A DNA stretch of 64,000 nucleotides from Eledone cirrhosa (lineage: Eukaryota). Under the pieces are notes generated by a model that worked only from the letters and a program-made list of their open reading frames with translations, did no database searches and was not told the DNA's origin. The DNA lies in assembly GCA_964016885.1 (NCBI GenBank), contig OZ024741.1, positions 227,726,001-227,790,000 of the forward strand, in the 5' to 3' direction. Shown here piece after piece: positions 3,128-57,174 of this stretch. The position numbers and the translations under genes were made by a program. Position 1 is the stretch's first letter, and every line of letters begins with the position of its first letter.

Positions 3128-3983
3128 TTAGTACTCAATGCTTGGTCTTCTGTGGAGATCAGCACTCTCCCTTTTTAGACTGGTCGACTGGTGGTTCAGG
3201 AAGCGTTCCTTAAATCGGCCCTCCGCCATACCCACATAGGTAAGCCCGAAGCTTGTCCCCTTCAACTGCAATGCAACACACCCGCTGTAATTTATGAAGC
3301 TGTGGTCACTTCCAACCGACCAAATCAACCACAGGAGGTCAAATCCTGTGTGGGTATGGCGGAGCGCCGATTTAAGGAACGCTTCCTCAACCACCAGTCG
3401 ACCTTTAGGTACCCGGACAGACGTTCATCCACGAAACTCGCGAACCACGTATGGTCCCTCAAGGACCCAAGTATAGACTACTCCATTCAATGGAAAGCCA
3501 TCACTAAGTCCAAGCCATACGCAAGGGGAAATCCGTCGTGTGGACTATGTATTGATGAACGAATAAATATTCTAAAGAGATTATGTAATAGTGATTGCCT
3601 AAACACGAGAAATGAATTCTTCACACGTTGTCCACACGTCTCCAAACACCTCTTACATAACTACAAAGCTCCGGATTGAATCACAACATCCTAATTTTCT
3701 TATCAACTAGAAACTTTTCGAACTTTCGCAGTTATCTCCCTTACACGCCTCGCACGCTTTTTAGTATTGCCTGTGTGAGGTGACGGTTTCTGCGCATGCG
3801 CGTTCGTACGGTTGTCCTTCCTGTTCCGTATGACCATGTCCGTTACGAGCTGAGGATCCGCTAAGGTGAAACAATTGTTCTCGGTATGGTGAACTAACTG
3901 TTGTGTAACCACTTCTACCTAACTCGTCCCATGGACTGAGTGCTCTACCACTACGGATATTACCTTCCAGTGTTCTACCACTA
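3128..3983 (+). mobile_element. 5'-truncated Naiad-like PLE: GIY-YIG endonuclease, 3' UTR and pLTR, with a 5' inversion
   Basis: ORF 3191-3679 has VIY..(Y)VG..FKERF.NH..CGLC..E..LN..CPH. About 3180-3237 is an inverted copy of about 3348-3402. HHR at 3846; ends in (TA)n. Confidence 0.9.
3846..3883 (+). ncRNA. Minimal type I hammerhead ribozyme, family B
   Basis: CGAG-CTGAGGA-T-CC(gctaa)GG-T-GAA-ACAATTGT-T-CTCG; palindromic stem III, GUU site. Confidence 0.8.
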
Positions 3984-5167: not shown

Positions 5168-5984
5168 TAATAATAATAATGATAATAGGTTATTATAATA
5201 GATTTAAGTGGTACAATTTGAGTTATGGAATAGATGGGATGAATTAAGTTGGTCTAAAATTATCGAATTTGGTCGCCGTTTTATACCTACAGAAAATTGT
5301 TCGTTCAATTTTGCTGTTAAGTAGCATTTTGTTGTATTTTAAAATATGGAATAGTTCCATACTACAAAGTCCACAGTGGGACATGCCAATTTTATAGGCC
5401 ATTGCCGTTGATAACTTCATCCAGCTGATCCTGTATTCCTGGTATCTTTGAGCTGCCAGATTTTATTGGCGAGCGTCGTTGTATTCATAAGCTTCCTGTT
5501 ATTTATAGTGTCTGTGGACATACCCCCTTTTCTTGAACTCCCCCGCCGTCGAACCTATGTAGTGCCATGCTAAGTTGCCTGAATTTATTGTACATAGGTA
5601 CACTATATTTGACTCCAGGCATCTATTTTGTAATGGGCATTTATCAGGCAAATGACAGTTACATTTTGATGCTTTCCTGTGTGCCGGTTCCGCGATACGG
5701 TTTTGTATGTTGTTATGGATAGGCTGAGAATTGGGTTTGTTGATGTATTGTCGTGATGTGTTCTGACGTCTGTTTGGTTGTGATGATGTTATGTGTTTGT
5801 GTTTTATATTTGGTGTTATGGTACTTATTTGCGGGCTATTTGTATTAGAAATTCTCTTATAGTTAATAAATATATATGCGTGTGTGTATGAATATGTGTG
5901 CTGTTATATATGCACGTATGCATAAATATATATTATTAAGAATCGGGACACAGCGGCCGGGTTCTTGCCGTTTCAATAGCTATT

Positions 5985-7157: not shown

Positions 7158-7588
7158 TATCGTTTCCGGTATGCCCGGCCGACTAACTCACTTGATATGA
7201 AAATTAGGCTGCTCAGCCGTTAACATGCATAAGGAAAGTATATACTTTCAGATTTTCAATCATCTGGCAGAAAGGTATACGATGCTGACGATAGCTAATA
7301 AGCTTGAAACTATTACATCGTTCTTGTGTCAGTGTTGAACAAAAGGGCGACGATGATTGCCGAGTACTGTATGGCTTAATTCGGGCTGTTTGTTTACAAA
7401 CAAACCGAACATGATAATAAATGTTCAGTAAACCCATACGTACATATATATATGTGTGCATGTATGTATATATATATATACATACTACTGCGCGTCTGTA
7501 CACATATATGTATGTACGTATACATACTTATATTTAGGTATCAGTCGTATTAAGAGTGATAAATGAAATTTCGTTTCATTCTTTTCCA
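7158..7588 (+). mobile_element. Dispersed monomer of the about 425-bp HHR repeat (family D)
   Basis: Matches the units of the 23730-26422 array; HHR 7279-7321: ACGATG-CTGACGA-T-AGCT(aata)AGCT-T-GAAACTATTA-CATCGT. Confidence 0.85.
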
Positions 7589-7599
7589 TATATATATAC

Positions 7600-9200
7600 A
7601 AAACTGGCAATCTATATCAAGTGGAGCGCAGTACTTACCATCAACTGCTACATAATGCTGTAACTAAGGATTACCGTAAAACTAATCGGAGTGTCATTAA
7701 TAACATCAACGATGCTGGGTTTAAAATCACCTCTGAACTCAACATCCTCGACCGGACTGAACCTTTGGACCCTATTTCTCCCCACTTTACCCTGAAGGAT
7801 CACAAATCCAATTTTCCCAACAACCCCTCTATTCGGCTTATTAACCCTAGGAAGTCCGATTTAGCTAGACTTAATTAAAGGATTTTAGATAGAATTATAC
7901 CTGAAATTAGAAGCTTGGCCCCTCTTGCACTGTGGAACAATTCTTTCGCGGTGATTGATTGGTTCAACGACATATGCAACAAGGAACATTGCCGTTTTAT
8001 CCAATTCGACAACAATAATTACTACTCCTCCATCACTTTACAACTTCTTCTTAGAGCTATCAATTTCAGTAAAACGCCCACGGTGGTTAAGGATTTCGAA
8101 GTTGATGCCATCCTCAATACCCGTAAGTCGGTGACCACACTATTAGCTAAGATCTTTCTCTCCCTTATTAAGATGCATTTCCCACCAGCACATAAATATA
8201 ATAACATTTTTAATAGAAATATCATTAATATTTCTTAATGTATGACTCCTAACCTTGCACATAACATCACTGCTTCAAATTTAGCTAAATTACCTAGCTG
8301 TAGGAACACGTGCAACCCTGTAGCTAGTACTAACTGTAATTGTAGGAATCGGGTTGACTGCCCCCTATCTGGGAAATGCCTCTCCAGTAACATTGTCTAC
8401 AAATGTAATGTTGAAACACCCACGTCCCGTTGGGCCTACATAGGGTTAACCGCCAATAGATTCAAGCAGCGTCTTTACATGCATACCCATGCTTTTCTTA
8501 ACCCTCTAAGAAGGAATATGATGTAACTTTGAGCTTATATCTGGAGTCTAAAAGACAACCACACCCAATATAGGTTACACTGGGAGATCCTAGCTAGGGC
8601 TAGATCGTATAACGGAAATAAAAGACCATTTGACCTCTGCGCCGCTGAAGCCCTGGAAATACTCTACGCCAATGACCACATCTTAAACAAAAAGTCTGAG
8701 GCATTTTCGGCTTGTAAACATAAATTGCATAAAACTTTCCTGTATTACAACCCCTCATTATACCCTAACGGATAGTACGAATAATACGCGGATAATTTAC
8801 GTCTTGATGTGGTAGCTAAGTATATGTTATGTTTATACCATTACTTATTTGTATATTACCTGTATGTTTTGTGAAGGTACGTATACTTTCTCGTACGTAT
8901 ATTTGCTTGCAATTGTTATAGGTGTATATATTATATTATATATACTGGTACATGTGTATATGGTTATTGTGTATACTTGTATTTTGCGTCTGTGTGTGTA
9001 TGCGGGTTTGCAAGTATTTAGGGTGTGTGTATATGCGTACTTTGTGTTTTTGTTGACGTACGTTTAGCGAACATATGTGTATTTACCTGTAGGTAGGGGC
9101 GTGTGCGCGTTATATACGTATTTATTTGTGTATATTTATATAGGTTTATATAATTTTATGCATACACGCACACACACACATATATATATATATTTAATAA
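7600..9200 (+). mobile_element. Internally deleted Naiad-like PLE (same family as 17045-18660)
   Basis: Highly similar to 17390-17910 and 18515-18660, joined at GGTGA (about 8130). Continues into CNCRNRVDCPLSGKC, GIY-YIG (IVYKC..YIGLT) to about 8775, then TG-rich 3' UTR. Confidence 0.9.
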
Positions 9201-12147: not shown

Positions 12148-14603
12148 ATGCTAATCAAAGATTATCTTCCTATGTCTACTAAGAACATACCAATACCATC
12201 CAGGGATACTTTAGACAAATTATTGATTAATAGTGTCAACTCTTTTATCAATAGAGTGAGATGGAGGACATTCCATTACGATAGAAACTGAACAGACAAA
12301 AACATAGATGCAAATAATTTCGACTCTTACGGCTTTAAAACTTTTAAAAGCCCACCTCACAACTTCTTATGAAACTTTTTCGAAAATGATCTAATAAAAC
12401 TAGTTAAGAACATAAGTACAGAAAACATCATAGTAGAAACAATACATTCTTAAACAACCTTAAGCCCACTATTAAAGGATTTAATAATAAAAAAAAAATT
12501 CTTGTACATGCAGATAAGACTAATAATATATATAGCCTAGATTACAATACATATAGAAAATGTATATATGAAGAACTACAAAGGTGCTATAAGAAAACCA
12601 CTATTAAAAACCTAGAGGATATAAATATAGAAGGCCATACATAGTATAGTATGTAAATTGGGACTTCAGAGACATAGACAACCATACACCCCTAACTCCC
12701 CAAGATTCTCTCTGAAAGACCATAAGGAAGACTTTAATAGTAACCCTTCTATAAGGCTAATTTTTCCCTCCAAATCTGACATTGGAATTATCAGCAAAAA
12801 AATATTAGATAGAATCATGCCCCAATTTAAGCATAAAATATATCTTAACCAGTGGGGGAAATACTGAAGTTATTGAATGGTTCAATGATATTAAAGAGAA
12901 TAAAAAAAAAAAATTATACAATTTGATATTAATTCATACTACACCTCTATTTCCCCTATCATATTAAATAATGCATTAATTATGGTTATGAACAATAGCG
13001 ACCTTACTAGATCCCAAATTGATGTCATCACAGCGGCCCGAAAAACCATAATTGCATTTGAAGATCAATTATGGACCCGCAAGCATACACATAACAACTT
13101 TGACATAACTATGGGATCTAGTGACTCGGCGCAGGTCTCTGATTTGGTGGGTCTATATCTCTTAAATAAAATTCATAGGAATTTACTCTACCTCAATGGT
13201 GATTTATACCGCGATGATGCACTACTTCTTATTGACTATAAAAAAATTAATATAGAAAGAACTAGGAAACAATTACATAACATTTTCAAAAACTTCAACT
13301 TAGGTATTACCTTAGATAAAAACACTAAAAACGTTAACTTCCTTGATGCTACCCTTTGCCTGGACTCTAAAATATATACACCCTTTCATAAACCAAACGA
13401 AAAACTACTTTATGTAGATACCAACTCTAACCACCCTAAATCCGTATTAAACTCAATTACTAAAGGAATATCAACTAGAATCTCTACTCTATCATATAAT
13501 GAAACCATATTTAACAGTAATTCCCAATACTATAGTGAGACCTTAGCTAAATCAGGCCATAAAAATGAAATTAAATTTCTACCTATAAAATCACCTAGTT
13601 ACAACATTATTTCTCACACGAGGAAAAATAATAAAAGTACTAGCCACTCTAACTCTAATACGAAGGGTAATATCAAACTTAACTCGCACCAGAATAAACC
13701 CCCCAATATTAATATAAACAGAAATATAAACAATACCTCAAAAAACATTACAAAAAACAAAAATAGAAGAACTAATACATTTTTCAATCCCCCTTTCAAT
13801 CTAAACGTCTCTACCAACTTGCCTAAGGCTTTCTTCTCAATCCTAGAAAAAACTTCCCGGTCGGCCACAAATACCATAATCTTATCTATAAAAATACAAT
13901 TAAAATCTCTTACTCTACCACACCTAACATCGCACACCATTTAGCTAGTAGTAATAAAAGGAAGATTAATAATTATTTCCAACTAATTAAATCACAACAG
14001 GGGGTAAACTTACATAGCAAGATAGTACCAGAGAATTCTAGTAGCAATAATAATAATGGTAATAGCACTAATGAAATTAATTACAATGGAAATGATAACC
14101 ACCATTACCCTAATGGTATCCCTAACAACCATGCATCTACACAAAATATAACCGGCAAGCAAACAACCAGAATAACTGTAACTGTAGAACAAATAGAACT
14201 TGCCCCTTAGCTAAAAATTGCTTAATCAAAGACATCATTTACTCATGCACAGTCAATACAAACAACTCTTCAAAAACATATCGGTTCTACTTCAAACTGC
14301 TTCAAGACGAGATATAACTCGCATCTCCACACTTTCAAAAATCGCAATCTAGCCAACTTCACTTCTTTATCTAACTACATACACTCTCTGAAAATTAGGA
14401 ATATACCATATACACTTCAATGGGAAGTAATAGATGAGGCCGCATCATATAAACGACCGAATAAATTATGTAACCTCTGTCTTCTAGAGACCCGCACTAT
14501 AATCTATTCTAAACAAAACCTCTTAAATAGAAAATCTGAAATTTTTTCCATGTGCCAACACTAACACCAACACTCTTTCCATAACTTTAAACCTAGCTGC
14601 TAG
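12148..14603 (+). pseudogene. Naiad-like PLE RT-GIY-YIG polyprotein, frameshifted
   Basis: STKNIPIPS..RVRW, LKDHKEDF..RLI, FDITMGSSDSAQVSDLVGLYLL, YRDDAL, NFLDATL, SNHP, FNPPF, CNC..CPL..C, CNLCLLE..LLN. Confidence 0.9.
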
Positions 14604-16893: not shown

Positions 16894-19070
16894 TTAATCT
16901 CTTATTTTAATAAATATTTGCTCTAAGGTTCTTATATATTTGATATATATTTATTCTTATCGATCCCTCGGATTTTAGTCTTCAAATTTATTATTATTAC
17001 GATTTGGCTCCCTCGCTTGAACACTCTTTTGACTTATATTCATCATGCAGAAATAACATCTGAATATTTCTACTAAGAACATACCCGTACCAAGCAGGAA
17101 GATATACCTAAAACTCCAGATACAGAAAACAGACTCGTTCATTAAAGGGTTGCGTTGACGTGCCTTTTATTTCGATAATCAGGAAAAACGGACAACAAAT
17201 AGGATAAATTTGGGCTTAAAACGTACAATAACCCTCCGACTAACCCTGCATTGCTAGCCTTCAAAAATGATGTCTTGGAACTCATACGGAGTATCAAATT
17301 TCGGAATAGAAGCAATTCCTTCCAGTAGGACCTGAAGAATAGAATTCGTTCTATTAAGGATTCTAATGCCGTGCACGTCCACTCCGACAAATCTGGCAAT
17401 CTATATCAAGTGGAGCGCAGTACTTACAATCAACTGCTACATAATGCTGTAACTAAGGATTACCGTAAAACTAATCGGAGTGTCATTAATGGCATCAACG
17501 ATGCTGGGTTTAAAATCACCTCTGAACTAAACATCCTGGACCGGAATGAACTTCTGGACCCTATTTCTCCCCACTTTACCCTGAAGGATCACAAATCCAA
17601 TTTTCCCAACAACCCCTCTATTCGGCTTATTAACCCTACGAAGTCCGATTTAGGTAGACTTAATAAAAGTATTCTTATACCTGAAATTAGAAGCTTGGCC
17701 CCTCTTGCACTGTGGAACAATTCTTTCGCGGTGATTGATTGGTTCAACGGCATATGCAACAAGGAACATTGCCGTTTTATCCAATTCGACAACAATAATT
17801 ACTACTACTCCATCACTTTACCACTTCTTAGAGCTATCAATTTCACTAAAACGCTCACGGTGGTTAAGGATTTCGAAGTTGATGCCATCCTCAATGCCCG
17901 TAAGTCGGTGATTAATTTCGACGACTCTATTTGGATTAAAAAATCCAATAGTACCCCATTCGACGTGAGTATGGGCGCCAGCGATTCTGCGGAAGTTACT
18001 GATATTATCGGCCTTTTCTTTTTTTCTCTATCAAGGAAGAATTCCCCAACGTGGGCGGTGGTTTGTATCGTGATGACGGTCTTTTGACCATGACAAAGTG
18101 CGGCCCACGCACTTGTGACATGTTCAGAAAAGAACTCAGAGCCGTCTTTAAAGACTTCAACCTTTTCATATAGGTTGAGACCAACCTCTTGGTCGTTAAT
18201 TACCTCGACGTTACCCTCAATTTGTCGAATGGCTTGCACTACCCGTATAGAGAGCCGAATGATACGCTTAATTACATAAGTAAGCATTCTAACCATCCTG
18301 CCAGCATAACCAAGAACCTGGTAAGAAACGTTTCTTTGAGGCTTTCCCGTCTATCTACAAACGAGCATATTTTCACCGACCATTCCACAAATTACAATGA
18401 AGCTCTTGCTCGGAGTGGATTTGTCGATAAGGTAGCATATACTGAGTATGAGCATAAACCTAAGAAAATTAGATCCCGACGCATTATATGGTATAACCCA
18501 CCATATAATATGGAGGTGACCACACCATTAGCTAAGATCTTTCTCTCCCTTATTAAGAAGCATTTCCCACCAGCATATAAATATAATAACATTTTTAATA
18601 GAAATGCCATTAAAATTTCTTACTCTACGTCTCCTAACCTTGCACTTAACATCACTGATTCCAAGAGTCATTTTCTCAAACACTTGCATCAATAATTTAC
18701 ACAGTAACAGTTTGGCATTTAATGATCCTGAATTATTCAACTGTCCAGCGAATGGAATACAGAACGTGACCAAAGTTTCCCTTGAGACCTATAAAATGTA
18801 TCTATCATAGATGCATTTCTCTTTAAAATACGAATTAGCCATATTCAAAATGCTACATTCAAATATATACAGCCAACGCCAATTCAATTCCTTAATGGCT
18901 TTCGAAGTGAAAGTTCCTACTCATAAGAGTAGCAACTTTCACTCTGAAAGCCATTAAAAAAATGTGAATCTACGAGTGACCTAAATATGAGATAAATGGT
19001 CTAGAGCATTCAGTTGTGCAAGTGGCGCTCCAGTACGGAATTAATAACTAAAGAACCTGTATGTATATAT

Positions 19071-21297: not shown

Positions 21298-21540
21298 ATG
21301 TATGCTTTTGTGTGTGTGTGTTTGTGTGTGTGTTTGCATGTGTGGTTCTATTTTATTTTTCCTTTCCTTCTTCTCTCTCCAGCCTCACTTTCATATAGAT
21401 TGCATTTTTGTTTTTAAAATCCAAATTCAATAAACAGACCAGGATTTTTTCATTCTGAGGATTGAAAGCAACATTTTTGCTTTTAAGAAACCACTGGTAA
21501 TTGGAATAATTGCCTTATGTTGTTTATTACATAACTATAT
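20239..21540 (+). mobile_element. Non-coding element bounded by about 105-bp direct repeats, each holding an HHR (family F; 20252-20312 and 21448-21506)
   Basis: TTCCATT-CTGAGGA-(stem II)-GAA-ACCACTGGT-G/A-AATGGAA; interior is TG/TA microsatellite-rich. Confidence 0.7.
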
Positions 21541-21552
21541 ATATATATATAT

Positions 21553-22278
21553 AAATGAGGTAAATATCTCACTGAGTACTAAGTACCCATAGAGATATAT
21601 AGGGTGTCTATAATATAATTGTTGTTCTATGGTACTAAATCTAGATACCAGAACTATAAAAATTGATGAGCAGAACAAACAAACATTAAACAATCCTTAA
21701 ATAAATTAAAAAATGATTTAAATATCTACCTGTTCATAATGCTATTACCGGCGGTTTCCATCTATAAAAGATTGGAAATTCAGAGAATTTCTAATGGAAA
21801 GTAGATTTCATCAGATAGCTATTTCCTTTCTATAGGACATACGTCCCATGGTCCGCAAATATAATGCCAACTACCAGCTCGTATGAGTTATGGCCGTTAA
21901 AGTGACCCACACGTGACCCGGCCGCTAGTGCAAGCGGGAATATTACAGACTTGTTGATGACTTGGCTGCTAAAAAAAAAATAGCAGTAAGCAACAACGAA
22001 TTTTTTCTCTACATAGATTGGAGAATGTATAAAAATGAGGTAAATATCTCACTGAGTACTAAGTACCCATAGAGATATATAGGGTGTCTATAATATAATT
22101 GTTGTTCTATGGTACTAATTCGAGATACCAGAACTTAAATATCTACCTGTTCATAATGCTATGAACAGGTAGATATTTAAATCATTTTTTAATTTATTTA
22201 AAGGATTGTTTAATGTTTGTTTGTTCTGCTCATCAATTTTTATAGTTCTGGTATCTCGAATTAGTACCATAGAACAAA
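21553..22278 (-). mobile_element. Non-coding HHR element (about 480-bp period, family G) with inverted 5' end
   Basis: 21553-21745 recurs at 22033-22162; 22163-22278 is an inverted copy. Confidence 0.85.
21741..21819 (-). ncRNA. Type I hammerhead, family G
   Basis: GCTAT-CTGATGA-A-ATCTA..GAAATTC(tct)GAATTTC..TAGAT-G-GAA-ACCG(c)CGGT-A-ATAGC; GUA site. Confidence 0.8.
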
Positions 22279-22279
22279 A

Positions 22280-23270
22280 GTTAACCTCTGCGGGATTTGA
22301 ACTCTATAAAACATTATATCGGGGCTACCTCCGGCCCGTTAAAAATTAGGTTTCGACCACATCTCCACTCTTTCATAAATAAAAAACTAAGACACTCCAC
22401 TTCGCTCGCGGACGACATCACATCACAAAAGGACTTAAACATGAGCTTCTCCACGCACTGGGATATTGTCGGCAGGGCTGCACCGTACAACTTCAAGAGG
22501 AAATGCGATATTTGCCTCATGGAGCTCTACCACACCATAACTGCACCCCACAAGCTCATCAACAGCAGAGCTGAAACAGCGATAAGTTGTACACATCGCT
22601 TAAAAATATCCTTCTTCAGATGGGTTAAGGAGGAGGAGTGAAACCGTGCACCGGATCTCCCTGCAACAAGTCTTAACACCCCGGCGGGCAGGCGCTGCAA
22701 AATAACACCCAGGGAACTATCCTTGCATATCAGACCCAGCCTCAACCGGCTCAGACAAACAGATGCAGAAAAAAAAACTCTCAAAATAAGCGTTGATTAC
22801 ATGCGTATCGACAATGGTAAGGTTGTAACCTCATCTCGTAGCGGATAAAAATATTTGTCCGGGAAAGACTGCCCTAACAGCGGCCAGAGTTACCTCCCTT
22901 GACCTGCTGCAAAATCAAAACAAACTATTTTTGCGAGCAATAAACCTTGACGTGGATTTAACTCCAAAAACTCTTTCCGAGCAATGTAAGGAACACTTTT
23001 GATTATTTATGCATGCCCTTGAGAAGCCCAACTGGGCGAACATACGTAGGTGCTGTTTTAAATAAACATGTTTTAACGGTCTATTCTCCGATTTCTTACT
23101 TTCCCACGTGCTTACGCTCTGCTAATTCTCTAGCCCACTAAATATAAACACTTCGAATATTTAATACTGCCGGCACTAGTATCGAGCACCTTTGGCATAC
23201 GCTACTTGGCAAATAACTATATGTATCACCTATCTTCCCCTTTTTTTCTCTCCCTCGATACGTAAATACT
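22280..23270 (+). mobile_element. PLE 3' fragment: GIY-YIG (22297-22641), 3' UTR and pLTR with family H HHR (23011-23053)
   Basis: YIGAT..LKIRF..H..SF..TSLA..W..Y..CDICLME..LINS..SCTH; pLTR shared with 57310-57610. Confidence 0.85.
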
Positions 23271-23285
23271 GTATATATATATATA

Positions 23286-23675
23286 TAGGAACGAGTAGGA
23301 CCCCGACGGCTGAGCTCAAGCCGTTTCGACGGCTAATTCTGGACGCGTCGAAACGGCTTGAGCTCAGCCGTCGGGGTCCTACTCGTCCCTATTACCCACT
23401 CTACTACCCTAAGTATTGAGTACTTTGGTGCGTTATGGTCCACCTGGTACCTTACCACATTTCCTTCGTAATATATGTATATATATAACGAGGGAATTGT
23501 GGTAAGGAACCAGATGGACCATACCGCACAGAGTACTCAATACTTAGGGTAGTAGTGTGGGTAATAGGAAAGGTATGACCCCGACGGCAGAGTTCAAGCC
23601 GTTTCGACGGCTATTTCTTGGTCCAGAAATAGTCGTCGAAACGTCTTGAGCTCTGCCGTCGGAGCCATAGCTTTT

Positions 23676-23680: not shown

Positions 23681-23729
<49 letters not shown>

Positions 23730-25322
23730 GAAAAAATGAAACGAAATTTCATTTCTCACTCTTAGTACGGCTGTTACTTAAATATAAGTATGTATACGTA
23801 CATACATATATGTATACAGACGTACAGTAGTATGTATATATATACATACATGCACACATATATATATGTACGTATGGATTTACCGACCATTTATTATACT
23901 GCTCGGTTTGTTTGTAAACAAACATCCCGAATTAAGCCGTACAGTGTTTAGCAACCATCGTTGCCCTTTTGTTCAACACTGACAAAGAAATCATGTACTA
24001 GTTTCAAGCTTATTAGCTATCGTCAGCACCGTATAGCTTCCCGCCAGATGATTGAACGTCTGAGTGTATATACTTTCCTTATGCATATTAACGGCTGAGC
24101 AGCCTAATTTTCATATCGAGTGAGTTAATCGGCCGGGCGCACAGAAAATGATAAATAGAAAAAATGAAACGAAATTTCATTTCTCACATTTAGTACGGCT
24201 GTTACTTAATTATAAGTATGTATACATACATACATATATGGATACAGACGTACAGTAGTATGTATATATATACATACATGCACACATGTACGTATGGATT
24301 TACCGAGCATTATAATAAATGCTCGGTAAATCCATACGTACATATGTGTCAGCTATCGTCAGCACCGTATACCTTCCTGCCAGATGATTGAACGATAGCT
24401 AATAAGCTTGAAACTAGTACATCGTTCCTTTGTCAGTGTTGAACAAAAAGGCAACGATGGTTGCTAAACACTGTACGGCTTAATTCGGGATGTTTCTTTA
24501 TAAACAAACCGAGCATTATAATAAATGCTCGGTAAATCCATACGTACATATATATATATATGTGTGCATGTATGTATATATATATACATACTACTGTACA
24601 TATATGTATGTACGTATTCATGTACGTACATATATATATGTGTGCATGTATGTGTATATATACATACTACTGTACGTCTGTATACATATATGTATGTACG
24701 TATACATACTTATATTTAAATAACAGCCGTAGTAAGAGTGAGAAATGAAATTTCGTTTCATTTTTTCCATTTATCGTTTTCGGTGCGCCCGGCCGATTAA
24801 CTCACTCGATATGGAAATTAGGCTGCTCATCCGTTAATATGCATAAGTAAAGTATATACTTTCAGACTTTCAATCATCTGGCAGGAAAGCAGAATGTATA
24901 CAATGCTGACGATAGCTAATAATCTTGAAACAATTCATCGTTCGTTTGTCAGTGTTGAACAAAGGGGCAACGATGGCTGCTAAACACTGTACGGCTTAAT
25001 TCGGGATGTTTATTTACAAACAAAGCGAGCATTATAATAAATTCTCGGTAAATCCATACGTACATATATATATATATGTGGGCATGTATGTATATATATA
25101 AACATACTACTGTACATATATGTATGTACGTATTCATACTTATATTTAAGTAACAACCGTACTAAGAGTGAGAAATGAAATTTCGTTTCATTTTTTCCAT
25201 TTATCGTTTTCGGTGCGCCCGGCCGATTAACTCACTCGATATGCTAATTAGGCTGCTCAGCTGTTAATATGCATAAGGAAAGTATATACTTTCAGATGTT
25301 CAATCATCTGGCAGGAAGGGAT

Positions 25323-25365
25323 ACGGTGCTGACGATAGCTAATAAGCTTGAAACTAGTACATCGT
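25323..25365 (+). ncRNA. Intact minimal type I hammerhead, family D
   Basis: ACGGTG-CTGACGA-T-AGCT(aata)AGCT-T-GAA-ACTAGT-A-CATCGT; palindromic stem III, GUA site. Confidence 0.88.
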
Positions 25366-26173
25366 TCCTTTGTCAGTGTTGAACAAAAGAGCAACGATGG
25401 TTGCTAAACACTGTACGGCTTAATTCGGGATGTTTATTTACAAACAAACCGAGCATTATAATAAATGCTCGGTAAATCCATACGTACATATATATATATA
25501 TATATGTGCATGTATGTATATATACATACTACTATACATATATGTATGTACGTATACATACTTATATTTAAGTAACAGCCATACTAAGAGTGAGAAATGA
25601 AATTTCGTTTCATTTTTTCCATTTATCGTTTTCGGTGCGCCCGGCCGATTAACTCACTCGATATGGAAATTAGGCTGCTCATCCGTTAATATTCATAAGT
25701 AAAGTATATACTTTCAGACGCTCAATCATCGGGCAGGAAAGCAGGAATGTATACGGTGCTGACGATAGCTAATAACCTTGAAACAATTCATCGTTCGTTT
25801 GTCAGTGTTGAAAAAAAGGCCAACGATGGCTGCTAAACACTGTACGGCTTAATTCCGGATGTTTGTTTACAAACAAACCGAGCATTATAATAAATGCTCG
25901 GTAAATCTATACGTATATATATATATATGTGTGCATGTATGTATATATATATACATACTACTGTACATATATGTATGTACGTATACATACTTATATTTAA
26001 GTAACAGCCCTACTAAGAGTGAGAAATGAAATTTCGTTTCATTTTTTCCATTTATCGTTTTCGGTGCGCCCGGCCGATTAACTCACTCGATATGCAAATT
26101 AGGCTGCTCACCCGTTAATATGCATAAGGAAAGTATATACTTTCAGATGTTCAATCATCTGGCAGGAAGATAT

Positions 26174-26216
26174 ACGGTGCTGACGATAGCTAATAAGCTT
26201 GAAACTAGTACATCGT
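26174..26216 (+). ncRNA. Intact minimal type I hammerhead, family D
   Basis: Identical to 25323-25365. Confidence 0.88.
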
Positions 26217-26419
26217 TCCTTTGTCAGTGTTGAACAAAAGAGCAACGATGGTTGCTAAACACTGTACGGCTTAATTCGGGATGTTTAGTTACAAACAAAC
26301 CGAGCATTATAATAAATGCTCGGTAAATCTATACGCACATATATATATGTGTACATGTATGTATATATATACATACTACTGTACGTCTGTATACATATAT
26401 GTATGTACGTATACATACT

Positions 26420-26478
<59 letters not shown>

Positions 26479-26480
<2 letters not shown>

Positions 26481-29203
26481 CGAAGGAAATGTGGTAAGGA
26501 ACCAGGTGGACCATAACGCACCAAAGTACTCAATACTTAGGGTAGTAGATCGGGTAATAGGAACGAGTAGGACCCCGACGGCTGAGCTCAAGCCGTTTCA
26601 ACGGCTAATTCTGGACCAAATGAAAATTTTTATCCTGGTATTTGAATAGCCGAGCTTCTCAGGGGGTAATTCCATATATGGTAAAAGTGATTGTCACAAG
26701 GATTGGTCAACAGTTTGTTGTTGAGACATAATAATTCTATTGTACCGCATAATAATTATATCGTACCGTGATTATGGGCTCCTTACCCTTAAAGGGTACA
26801 ACCCCAGTAGTACAGATCGGATCCGTAAACAATTAATCAGCTTCTTCCGCGACTGAGGATTTAAAATAACACAACAAACGTACCTGACCCGAGTTAACTT
26901 CCTGGACGTTACCCTTGACCTCGATAATGATCTGTACTACCCATACAGGAAACCTAACGACAACCTGCACTACATCCACCGACGGTCAAACCATACTAGG
27001 AACATTACCAATAACCTGGTTAAAAACATCTCCCTCCGCATATCTCGTTTGTCAGCTAATGAGCAGATATTCGAGGAACATGCGCCTTACTACAACCAGG
27101 CCCTCAAGCGGAGTGGTTTCCGGGAGGAAATATCCTACTGTCCAGCTTCTATTAGCGGAACCAGAAACGTAACATGGTTAAATCCTCCCCACAATGCCGA
27201 GGTGACATCTCCTATCGGGAAAACCTTCTTTAGGCTCATTGAAAAACACTTCCCACTACAACACCGCTACCACAACATAATTAACAAAAAATACCATCAA
27301 ACTCTCCTACAGCACCACACCAAACTTTGCACAAAACATCGTCTCCTCTAACAACAAAAAACTCAACCCCTATGGAAGAAATAACCTAAATAGCAGTGGA
27401 GAGCCGACCAGGAGGTGCAACTGTCCTGATGGATCCATTTTCCCCCTCGACAACAGATGCAGATATCGTAATGTGATCTACCAGTGCAACGTGAGGACGG
27501 ACACCTCCAACAAAGCCCATATAGGATTAACCGCATGTGACTTCAAGACCCGGCTATACCAATACAGACATACCTTCCGAAACCCGGCCCGGCGTCACGC
27601 CACTACACTTTCGGGCCACATATGGGACCTCAAGGATAACAATATTACCTATGATCTCACTTGGAGCTTACGGTCCAGAGCCAACTCTTACACGGGAGGA
27701 CGCCGTCCGTGCAATATATGCTCTGAGGAAACTTTACAAATGCTGTTTTCGACGGAGCAACTCCTAAACAAGAAAGATGAACTGGTAACTGCATGTAAAC
27801 ACCGATTGCGTAGGACTTACCTCGCCCTCAAACTCCAAAATGACCGGGGGGGGGGTAGACTAGGGCTATAACACCCCACTTGCCGAATTTGTATTGGGTA
27901 ACCCCTGCTTGCAAAGGTAGACCTGGGATCTTCTTCTATATCTTTTTATCACTTCCTCTATATTTCCTTCTTCCCCCATCCCTCCCTAGTCCTCCCACCC
28001 CAGTCCTCTTTCTTTGTCGTCGTCCTTTTACTTTCTCGCCCACCCGAGGCAGCCCCTCGGACCCTTGTAGCCTCAGTACCCCCACCCCTTCCCCTATTCT
28101 ATGATAGATTTGGCCGACTCCGCTTTTTATAGCAGATGTGTTAGACCCCGGATACTAGCCTTCTTATCCGATGGCTGCCCCTTTTCCGTGCTTTCTATAT
28201 TTCTTAGTGGTATCATTGCTTTAATTTCTCGTATATCAGTATTTATTTATTTATTAAATATTTTTTTGGGGGGGGGGGGGGGGATTCTGAATTAATTTTC
28301 CGTATCAAATTTTACATATACTTCGTACGAGCATTTATGTAGTTTGCACTAGAATGTTTGTATCGTGGCAGCACCCTTAGAGATAGTATTAGTATTCTTT
28401 TTCGGGATTCTGAATTATTATTTCGTATTAGTTTATTTTTTTTGCACTGGGTGGTTGCTGGCCTTGTGCCTGGGGTAGAAACCTTTATTTCGTACTGGTC
28501 TCGGGACTCTGATTTATTATTTCGTGGTAGTTTCTTTAGTATTTTGGCCCCCCATTTGTTGACCCGTCACCGTAAGATATATTCGGTTGTTTACTTATAC
28601 CTCTTAAAAGGGTCTCATTATAATTCCGTCCCACCTAGTAAACCTTTCTTTAGTCTAGCAGTACCAGTGAGAGACTTGATAGCTGTCCTTAGGTTATAGT
28701 AACCAGAAATTGTTTTTTTCTTTACATTTAATTGTTTTTTAACACTCCCGGTATTTTTCTATATATTTACCCCATATTGTTTTACTTATTGTTTCGACTT
28801 CCTCCCCTCCCCTAGTATCTTCTTTGACCTCTTGCCCAGCCGTAGTTGGCACTATCAACGCACGACTGGGTTTCCTCCACCCCCTCTCCCTCTTTCTTCT
28901 ACAGGCAGGTTCAGCTACCCCTTCCCTCCACAAATTACCATGATAGAATTATTATGTCTCAACAACAAACTTTTGACCAATCCTTGTGACAATCACTTTT
29001 ACCATATATGGAATTACCCCCTGAGAAGCTCGGCTATTCAAATACCAGGATAAAAATTTTCATTTAGTCCAGAATTAGCCGTCGAAACGGCTTGAGCTCA
29101 GGCGTTGGGGTCCTACTCGTTCCTATTAACCACTCTACTACCCTAAGTATTGAGTACTTTGGTGCGTTATGGTCCACCTGGTTCCTTAACACATTTCCTT
29201 CGT
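26479..29203 (+). mobile_element. 5'-truncated Naiad-like PLE with about 260-bp inverted pLTRs (family A parent)
   Basis: 26479-26740 is the reverse complement of about 28943-29203. Interior 26765-27871 encodes YRD., NFLDVTL, SNH, WLNPPH, CNC..C, VIY..HIG..CNICSEE..LLN..CKH. Flanked by (TA)n. Confidence 0.92.
29016..29111 (+). ncRNA. Type I hammerhead, family A (CUGAGAA core, long stem II); mirror copy at 26572-26667 (-)
   Basis: ACCCC-CTGAGAA-G..CGGCTATTC..GAATTAGCCG.C-GAA-ACGGC(TTGAGCTCA)GCCGT-C-GGGGT (consensus of both arms). Confidence 0.7.
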
Positions 29204-56101: not shown

Positions 56102-57174
56102 TGAGATTCTACAGGACTAGAACAGTTTCATTCTTTAGAAATCATCAGGAATCTGGGTATCAAAATATAAGTATGGTATTTATAGGTCTCTTCAAGTGGT
56201 AGGAGAGGGTAGGGAGTGGGATGGGTGTAGGTCATTGGTTGATAGAAAAGGGAATTCATTAAAAGCTAATTCTTCAAAGCTATAGTTTATTTATGCCCAT
56301 ACCCACTCCTTCAGAAGACCGGACAAATCAAACAAGACAACACTCGCCTCCTATATTTGGGACCTCAAAAGGAACTCCACCCCCTTCACGCTTAAATGGA
56401 AAATACTCCAGAAAGCGCGCTCTTACAACGGAGGACACAAGGGCTGCGACCTTTGTATCTCAGAGAGCTACGAAATTTTATTCGCCAAGGGCCCGCTACT
56501 GAACAAACTCTCTGAACACTGCCCGAACTGCATGCACAAGAACTTTGCAACTTTCAAACACTTTAAGCCAGTGTTAAAGCCCGATGGCTAAAAACGACCT
56601 CCTCCTATTGGCCCCTATACCTCCTTCCCACCCTACCCCCACCCCTCCTCAACCTGAAATACGGCCACTATGGTTATGTGAGTACCTCTTACCTATCTGC
56701 ATTTTCTGCCTGTAGAGCTGTTTTATGTGCCTGTGTATATGCGCATATTTATTGAGTACTTATTTATTTGTATGTGTATATATTTGTGTGTATGTGTGTA
56801 TATGTTTGTTTATGTATATGTATGTGTATGTATGTGTATGTGTGCACACATATATATGTGTATGTATGTGTGTATATGTATACATATGTGTGTATGTGTA
56901 TGTATATGTATATATATATATATGTGTGTGTATGTGTATGTATATATATATATGTATATGTATGTATATATATATATATATGTGTGTGTGTATATATGTG
57001 TATGTATATGTATATATATATATATATATATATGTATGTTTGTGTATGTATGTATGTATATGTGTATATATGTGTATATGTACATATATGTATATATGTG
57101 TGTGTGTATATATGTGTGTGTATGTGTGTGTGTGTGTCTGTATGTGTATATATATGTATATATATATATATATA

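Follow-up and report, generated by a model that had tools for sequence, protein, structure and literature searches.

Introduction

The closest described systems to the repeat reported here are the animal retrozymes and the Penelope-like elements (PLEs). Animal non-LTR retrozymes are ORF-less units of a few hundred bases that carry one type I hammerhead and occur as partial tandems, with PLEs proposed as the elements that move them (PMC7229834; bioRxiv 10.64898/2026.07.22.740005), and animal retrozymes have been argued to be non-autonomous PLEs themselves (bioRxiv 10.64898/2026.07.22.740005). In PLEs, inverted 5′-truncated copies and a tail at one end only are standard (PMC8557442), and pLTR hammerheads, their dimeric activity and circular templates were proposed earlier (PMC4209133). 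In vitro, both target strands are cut and extended by a purified PLE protein with a predicted dimeric form, which initiates at two internal sites of the RNA on either side of the tail; hammerhead cleavage is not needed in this system, as hammerhead mutants still insert (PMC11167929). Our literature search, which covered main texts, few of them from subscription journals, found no paper beyond those cited that counts how ends are paired or sets 5′ ends against the predicted cut; the PMC11167929 supplement, which deals with genomic ends, may be relevant here. Nor did it find a twin-priming model of Penelope in the main texts covered.

The repeat family of Eledone cirrhosa described below offers a countable test of how PLEs come by their inverted ends and what purpose their hammerheads serve, and the counts argue against the ribozyme or self-priming as a general cause. 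Like the animal non-LTR retrozymes, its unit is ORF-less, a few hundred bases long, equipped with one type I hammerhead and found in partial tandems, with Penelope-like elements likewise the proposed movers (PMC7229834; bioRxiv 10.64898/2026.07.22.740005). Unlike those retrozymes as described there, the Eledone copies are dispersed, comprise at most about two units, lie in (TA)n and have head-to-head arms; those retrozymes give linear and circular monomers (PMC7229834). Among public runs, no RNA run was listed for the Eledone unit. With endonuclease-bearing PLEs the unit shares 5′ truncation, partial tandems, an inverted 5′-truncated copy, a tail at one end, TA-repeat targeting and microhomology joins (PMC8557442, PMC3846280), and it differs from them in having no ORF and a tail of about 100 nt, as against the 30-40 nt given in PMC8557442. 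We propose that the unit is a putative non-LTR retrozyme, or non-autonomous Penelope-type element, of an already known kind.

Architecture of the locus

The window, the whole 64,000-nucleotide stretch of the E. cirrhosa genome to which all positions refer, contains the insertion at 21553-22278. Unit coordinates (u) equal 22036 minus the window position and are counted on the minus strand. Along the plus strand the order is (TA)n, a full unit, u480-382, u318-291, inverted u298-414, a 28-bp repeat piece and a truncated Penelope-like element. The (TA)n target tract (21536-21552) adjoins the 3′ end of the insertion, here called site A. Next to it, on the minus strand, lies the full retrozyme unit (21553-22035; u1-480 plus overlap), recognised by unit parsing and family search, which shares 92-96% identity with the 40 other best copies of the family. 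Three minus-strand features are found within it: the type I hammerhead motif (21741-21819; u217-295), with a predicted cleavage between 21746 and 21745 (u290/u291); a long imperfect RNA hairpin of 64 nt from fold prediction (21672-21735; u301-364; z −3.7), with its 5′ foot 10 nt downstream of the predicted cut; and site B, TTTTTATA ending at u381 (21655-21662), in a predicted unpaired linker.

Upstream of the full unit, parsing on the minus strand gives a partial tandem copy of u382-480 (22036-22134), fused over a deletion to u291-318 (22135-22162, the reverse complement of u291-318 at 28 of 28 positions). A preliminary description of this DNA had put about 60 bp as missing from one arm, and the direct arm indeed lacks 63 nt (u319-381), likely by a later deletion, whose right breakpoint falls on site B (u381/u382). 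Site B was considered as a deletion hot spot and rejected: the join at 22135 is the only one of 27 same-orientation joins in the family to fall there. The head-to-head junction is a 21-bp perfect palindrome (22135-22180) with arms at 22135-22155 and 22160-22180 around the 4-nt loop ATGC (22156-22159), in keeping with the hairpin first described at this place. The inverted copy that had been noted beyond 22162 is equally present: u298-414 lies in opposite orientation at 22160-22277 on the plus strand. Its outer end, u414, coincides with neither of the sites A and B, and no TA follows it. It is followed on the plus strand by a 28-bp fragment of another dispersed repeat, presumably SINE-like (22277-22304, by sequence comparison), and by a 5′-truncated copy of an autonomous Penelope-like element (22309-23287, by protein and family comparison) in which a 3′ repeat is present together with the GIY-YIG end of an RT-endonuclease ORF of 927 aa. 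This copy likely inserted later, removing the outer end of the inverted arm.

The upstream copy had also been said to start precisely at the ribozyme cut. The longer arm is compatible with that start, but the two arms have TAT in common at 22160-22162, so the breakpoint may lie anywhere in u291-294. The direct arm can equally well be read as starting at u291, 292, 293 or 294, and one of these four places its start precisely at the cut. Independent confirmation of the head-to-head junction was sought in public contigs from three runs of one sample, none of which spanned it.

The repeat family

The unit represents an ORF-less repeat of about 480 bp that is dispersed in several hundred copies in the genome. 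A 20-nt anchor has at least 325 exact copies in the genome assembly (G000), and a search with the unit returned 2137 first-look candidates, the best 40 of which were scored. The repeat period is 480 at the 21553-22278 locus and about 478 across the family (range 478-480), and the longest stop-to-stop frame inside the unit is 72 aa. From best-match searches, the first 100 of 169 exact matches to u296-322 and end-targeted searches over u267-340, we parsed 259 loci into 183 distinct insertions with 314 arms. In this sample, which was partly chosen for long copies, 57 arms are longer than one unit, and several carry two hammerhead motifs. No long tandem arrays of the unit were seen among the parsed loci, where copies reach at most about two units. 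The combination of a partial tandem, an inverted 5′-truncated copy and a one-sided tail is present in the family, and the preliminary reading of an ORF-less PLE-type element thus holds as a no-ORF unit with Penelope-type architecture. The autonomous element that flanks the present copy was ruled out as the direct parent, having no sequence in common with the unit; in the one autonomous family compared (L290, L291), no shared sequence matched better than E 0.1.

The hammerhead motif

The hammerhead claimed at 21819-21741 was recovered with its core. CUGAUGA, GAAA and GUA occur in order, stem I has 5 bp, stem II has 6 bp and a long loop, stem III has 3 bp and a GCC loop, and all three helices can be drawn. 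Among 152 distinct copies, the 5′ core with its flank is exact in 117 and the 3′ part in 103, and several versions of stem II, set apart by compensatory changes, characterise different subfamilies. Pairing at all six stem II positions is kept in 129 of the 152 copies; shuffling the 5′ and 3′ strands among copies gave 77 on average and 88 at most. In this comparison a few events are counted many times because the copies are related. The copy at 21741-21819 carries a private G-to-A change in stem II.

A search of Rfam at gathering and E-value thresholds matched no hammerhead model. The unit lacks the G10.1-C11.1 pair at the base of stem II, a criterion given in the text of PMC4209133, and has there an A opposite G or C plus one extra base on each side. 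Further, in the minimum-energy fold predicted for the circular unit, the hammerhead helices are absent and other helices form. As modelled, the motif is a type I hammerhead and its self-cutting is predicted.

Two fixed 3′ ends and their pairing

The 314 arm ends comprise 124 at site A (the unit end), 127 at site B and 63 elsewhere, and 118 of the B ends fall at exactly u381. The two sites lie about 100 nt apart and both read TTTTTATA; a TA repeat directly follows 103/124 A ends and 112/127 B ends. Among 94 head-to-head junctions, 63 join an A arm to a B arm, none joins A to A, two join B to B, and 29 have at least one untyped end. Thus 63 of the 65 insertions with both ends typed are AB (p 6e-17 vs free choice). 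Compared with endonuclease-bearing PLEs, as their published accounts describe them, the rule of one A and one B is here a counted one. The inverted ends of the family are set by two fixed 3′ sites and not by the ribozyme. One arm per start site is a sharp rule, directly testable in the published in vitro system, and it is a firmer result than the cluster of junctions at the cut described below. The unrelated autonomous Penelope-like family of the flanking copy likewise has two 3′ ends in 17 loci: eight of its arms terminate at a single internal position with TA after it, and ten end about 165-195 nt further on.

In the preliminary description the inverted end was made by self-priming: self-cleavage would create the template 5′ end, and the cDNA would fold back on itself (TAT on ATA) and prime its own second strand. 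Self-priming has been proposed for Penelope palindromic junctions in the text of PMC3846280, and at u291 the sequence permits a terminal stem of 3 bp around a loop of 4 nt. The family departs from the signature of such a fold-back, an inverted arm contained in its partner and a symmetric junction. Near-symmetric junctions make up 14 of 94, and the other 80 are not of this kind. In 32/63 AB insertions the B arm extends past the A arm by more than 15 nt; these inverted arms hold sequence that is absent from the other arm and are therefore not fold-back copies. Together, the two counts refute self-priming as a family-wide rule. Since the A arm always has u382-480 and a first-pass B arm does not, neither arm of such an insertion was copied from the other. 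Inner junction points are spread over the whole unit, and the expected pile-up of inversion points at the cut did not appear. Arm identity was tried as a further test of fold-back and set aside: the arms of near-symmetric pairs show no greater likeness (3.6 differences per 100) than those of distant pairs (1.8). For the copy at 21553-22278 itself, the inverted arm passes B without stopping, as a fold-back would, and this model requires the 63-nt deletion to be later. We regard self-priming at a ribozyme-made end as improbable.

Both arms of an insertion come from the same source, as indicated by minority letters common to its two arms (0.88 per 100, vs 0.12 in random pairs; 48 pairs). Of the 94 junctions, 57 have an overlap of 1-10 nt, 20 contain extra bases and 17 are blunt. 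The head-to-head end probably joins two separately primed cDNAs, a reading drawn from these sequence comparisons. A Penelope-type RT-endonuclease, probably dimeric, would act in trans and cut both strands of a (TA)n target; one cDNA would start at each of the sites A and B, with circular or multimeric RNA from one source as the template; and both would stop early, their 3′ ends annealing head to head by microhomology. In the copy at 21553-22278 the cDNAs would have stopped at u291-294 and u298-301 and annealed via TAT/ATA. The u414 end of its inverted arm, which is not B and has no TA, counts against joining of two cDNAs; a self-primed second strand would explain that end with no further events needed. 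Also counted against it are the tail of about 100 nt, the result that the one autonomous family compared shares no sequence with the unit, and the near-symmetric junctions at the cut described below. Given that u414 lies beside later-looking insertions, this locus alone fits both a two-cDNA fusion and a fold-back.

Joining of two cDNAs has a counterpart outside the PLEs. In L1 twin priming, the second target strand primes a second cDNA, which gives a 5′ inversion joined by microhomology. Unlike in L1, where the second start is a chance internal A-rich match, the second start in Eledone is a fixed site. An overlap of hundreds of bases between the arms is frequent in Eledone, and it calls for two RNAs or for a template that is circular or multimeric. 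The green anole element Poseidon in vitro resembles the Eledone family in its two tail-bounding RT starts, in the cutting and extension of both strands and in a dispensable hammerhead; in the accessible account of that work there is no bulk strand difference, and the two sites are not tied to the two arms of one insertion (PMC11167929).

5′ ends and the predicted cut

A 5′ end made by the ribozyme should leave 5′ ends at the cut, and most arms read through it: the cut is crossed by 75/124 A arms and 84/127 B arms. In 99 unselected arms, 95 reach u292 and three stop at u291 by longest match; the rest read through. Three of 95 at u291 is unusual for a single base (p 0.009) but not over the four bases of equal reading (p 0.24), and the rate ratio for ends at u289-296 is 2.1 (p 0.058). 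Genome-wide searches for copies that break off downstream of an anchor gave 59 and 81 rows, from which 43 and 74 ends were kept after 16/59 and 7/81 rows with read-through, small indels or out-of-range ends were dropped; the two row sets overlap. Each end was spread across its overlap interval. Scored in this overlap-aware way, ends at u289-294 show no excess in either set (8.5/43 vs 7.4 expected, p 0.46; 9.0/74 vs 8.2, p 0.44). One end (L226), called u287 overlap-aware and u291-292 by longest match, would raise 8.5 to 9.5 against 7.4. Longest-match scoring puts 7/59 rows at u291, one of which (L221) is a substitution. This pile was dropped as evidence, as the longest match lumps up to four breakpoints and overlap-aware scoring erased it.

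More ends than expected fall at u295-301 (16.1 vs 8.6 in the 43-end set, 21.1 vs 9.6 in the 74-end set), and this excess is significant only with TA-joined ends included. This A/T-rich stretch is located where the predicted 64-nt RNA hairpin has its 5′ foot. About 6 of at least 325 anchored arms were found to end at the cut, a minimum, given that some ends escape the search. The 5′ ends of the family generally do not pile up at the cut, contrary to what the preliminary description would have them do, and the predicted cut likely marks the start of a few copies only, the one at 21553-22278 included. A second pass that stops at u290-300 is seen in several arms exceeding one unit (L141, L072, L053, L134, L062, L211, L216, L234).

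Hairpin-type junctions at the cut

The coincidence of the junction with the cut is real for the copy at 21553-22278, yet it is not a family rule. We searched for hairpin-type junctions with both arms spanning u301-308, which gave 30 places; 6 were excluded by alignment and 19 by eye, leaving five family matches (the copy at 21553-22278, L062, L184, L208 and L254). The end of the longer arm falls at u289-294 in each of the five. Three registers occur, all compatible with u291 ±1, and to this extent the idea of a ribozyme-made 5′ end retains support. Two equally wide control windows, searched with 9-nt arms and judged by eye, gave one family match in 3 places and none in 31. Without the copy at 21553-22278, the cluster amounts to 4/5 in one of three windows (p 0.045). 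Near-symmetric junctions are also more frequent with an arm end at u288-301 (7/23) than otherwise (7/70; p 0.025), and the place where the two arms of the copy at 21553-22278 meet is a modest hot spot for them. That local sequence or RNA structure causes this hot spot has, in our estimate, an even chance; run-off at a ribozyme-cut 5′ end is a possible cause to which we give rather less than that.

Two of the four sister junctions bear on self-priming. In L184 and L208 a short B arm reaches the cut without u382-480, which is present in the partner, an A arm; these are therefore two-cDNA fusions and not fold-backs.

A minor pathway may account for the cluster. In it, hammerhead-cut linear templates would let both cDNAs run off at u291, the ends annealing after trimming of a few bases, with the copy at 21553-22278 and its four sisters as products. 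Consistent with this are the five of five hairpin junctions at the cut vs one and none in the controls, the unselected arms at u291 when a single base is considered, the covariation of stem II, and the coexistence of linear and circular monomers in other animal retrozymes, as the text of PMC7229834 describes. Further, no end falls at the identical ATAGC pentamer at u214 (6 ends, with an anchor about half as common). These points are opposed by the overlap-aware counts and the loss of significance over four bases, by the position of the excess at u295-301, where it stems from TA-joined ends at the foot of the predicted RNA hairpin, and by a natural 4-bp hairpin, TAAT-GCT-ATTA, which is centred on u294 and used by 3/5 of the junctions. 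In addition, RNA reads of the anole element neither began nor ended at the cut, in the data that the accessible text of PMC11167929 presents. We consider this pathway tenable, at somewhat less than an even chance, and cut RNA may template a minority of insertions.

The same observations fit a coincidence, in which ordinary truncation within an A/T-rich micro-palindrome at the foot of the RNA hairpin put the junctions there and the ribozyme had no role in their position. The natural hairpin at u294 would supply that micro-palindrome, u289-294 shows no excess of ends while the excess at u295-301 comes from TA joins, and near-symmetric junctions are found at u297-346 too. Against it, stronger 5-bp micro-palindromes at u315-336 yielded no hairpin-type junction in the control window, and the copy at 21553-22278 and L184 use registers other than that of the natural hairpin. 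We place coincidence just short of an even chance. The five junctions are a lead for ribozyme activity in vivo, at slightly less than even odds, and not proof of it.

Taken with the joining of two separately primed cDNAs, the minor pathway would imply an asymmetric RT dimer that always makes one cDNA per fixed site, the two on opposite target strands, with both cDNAs running off and forming a hairpin junction whenever the template is a hammerhead-cut linear RNA and not the circle. This combined scheme we think unlikely; if true, it would provide genomic evidence of ribozyme cutting in the germ line that shapes a minority of insertions.

Neighbouring elements

The autonomous Penelope-like family that flanks the copy (22309-23287; L290:1279-4059; L291), which we take to be Neptune-like, has 49,055 first-look candidates and intact 927-aa ORFs. 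Its protein has a long low-complexity insert between RT and endonuclease and a cysteine motif before GIY-YIG, a label that comes from Atlas and visible motifs. Pfam matched no family on either the flanking ORF piece or the 927-aa ORF, and a pattern search found no canonical hammerhead core in this family. Decayed Penelope-like ORF pieces with 26-50% identity to the 927-aa protein lie at 3257-3637, 5265-5636, 7540-8742, 12148-14579, 17021-18644, 26764-27823 and 56295-56540.

A second hammerhead-bearing repeat of about 425 bp occupies 23728-26430 as a tandem with a head-to-head inverted copy; its minimal hammerhead motif occurs on the plus strand at 24906, 25329, 25759 and 26180 and on the minus strand at 24026, and also at 7285. 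Right behind a TA tract, a near-perfect G+C-rich palindrome of about 100 bp (23290-23387) with related copies nearby is likely the head-to-head junction of another repeat. At L272:1440-1560, a different repeat family has a hairpin junction whose inner end contains a 12-nt word of u298-309, with a hammerhead-like motif downstream of the junction. Finally, 30 copies of one short palindrome mark a tandem array at G000:C1:318605394-318976960, whose period is about 1.4-1.8 kb.
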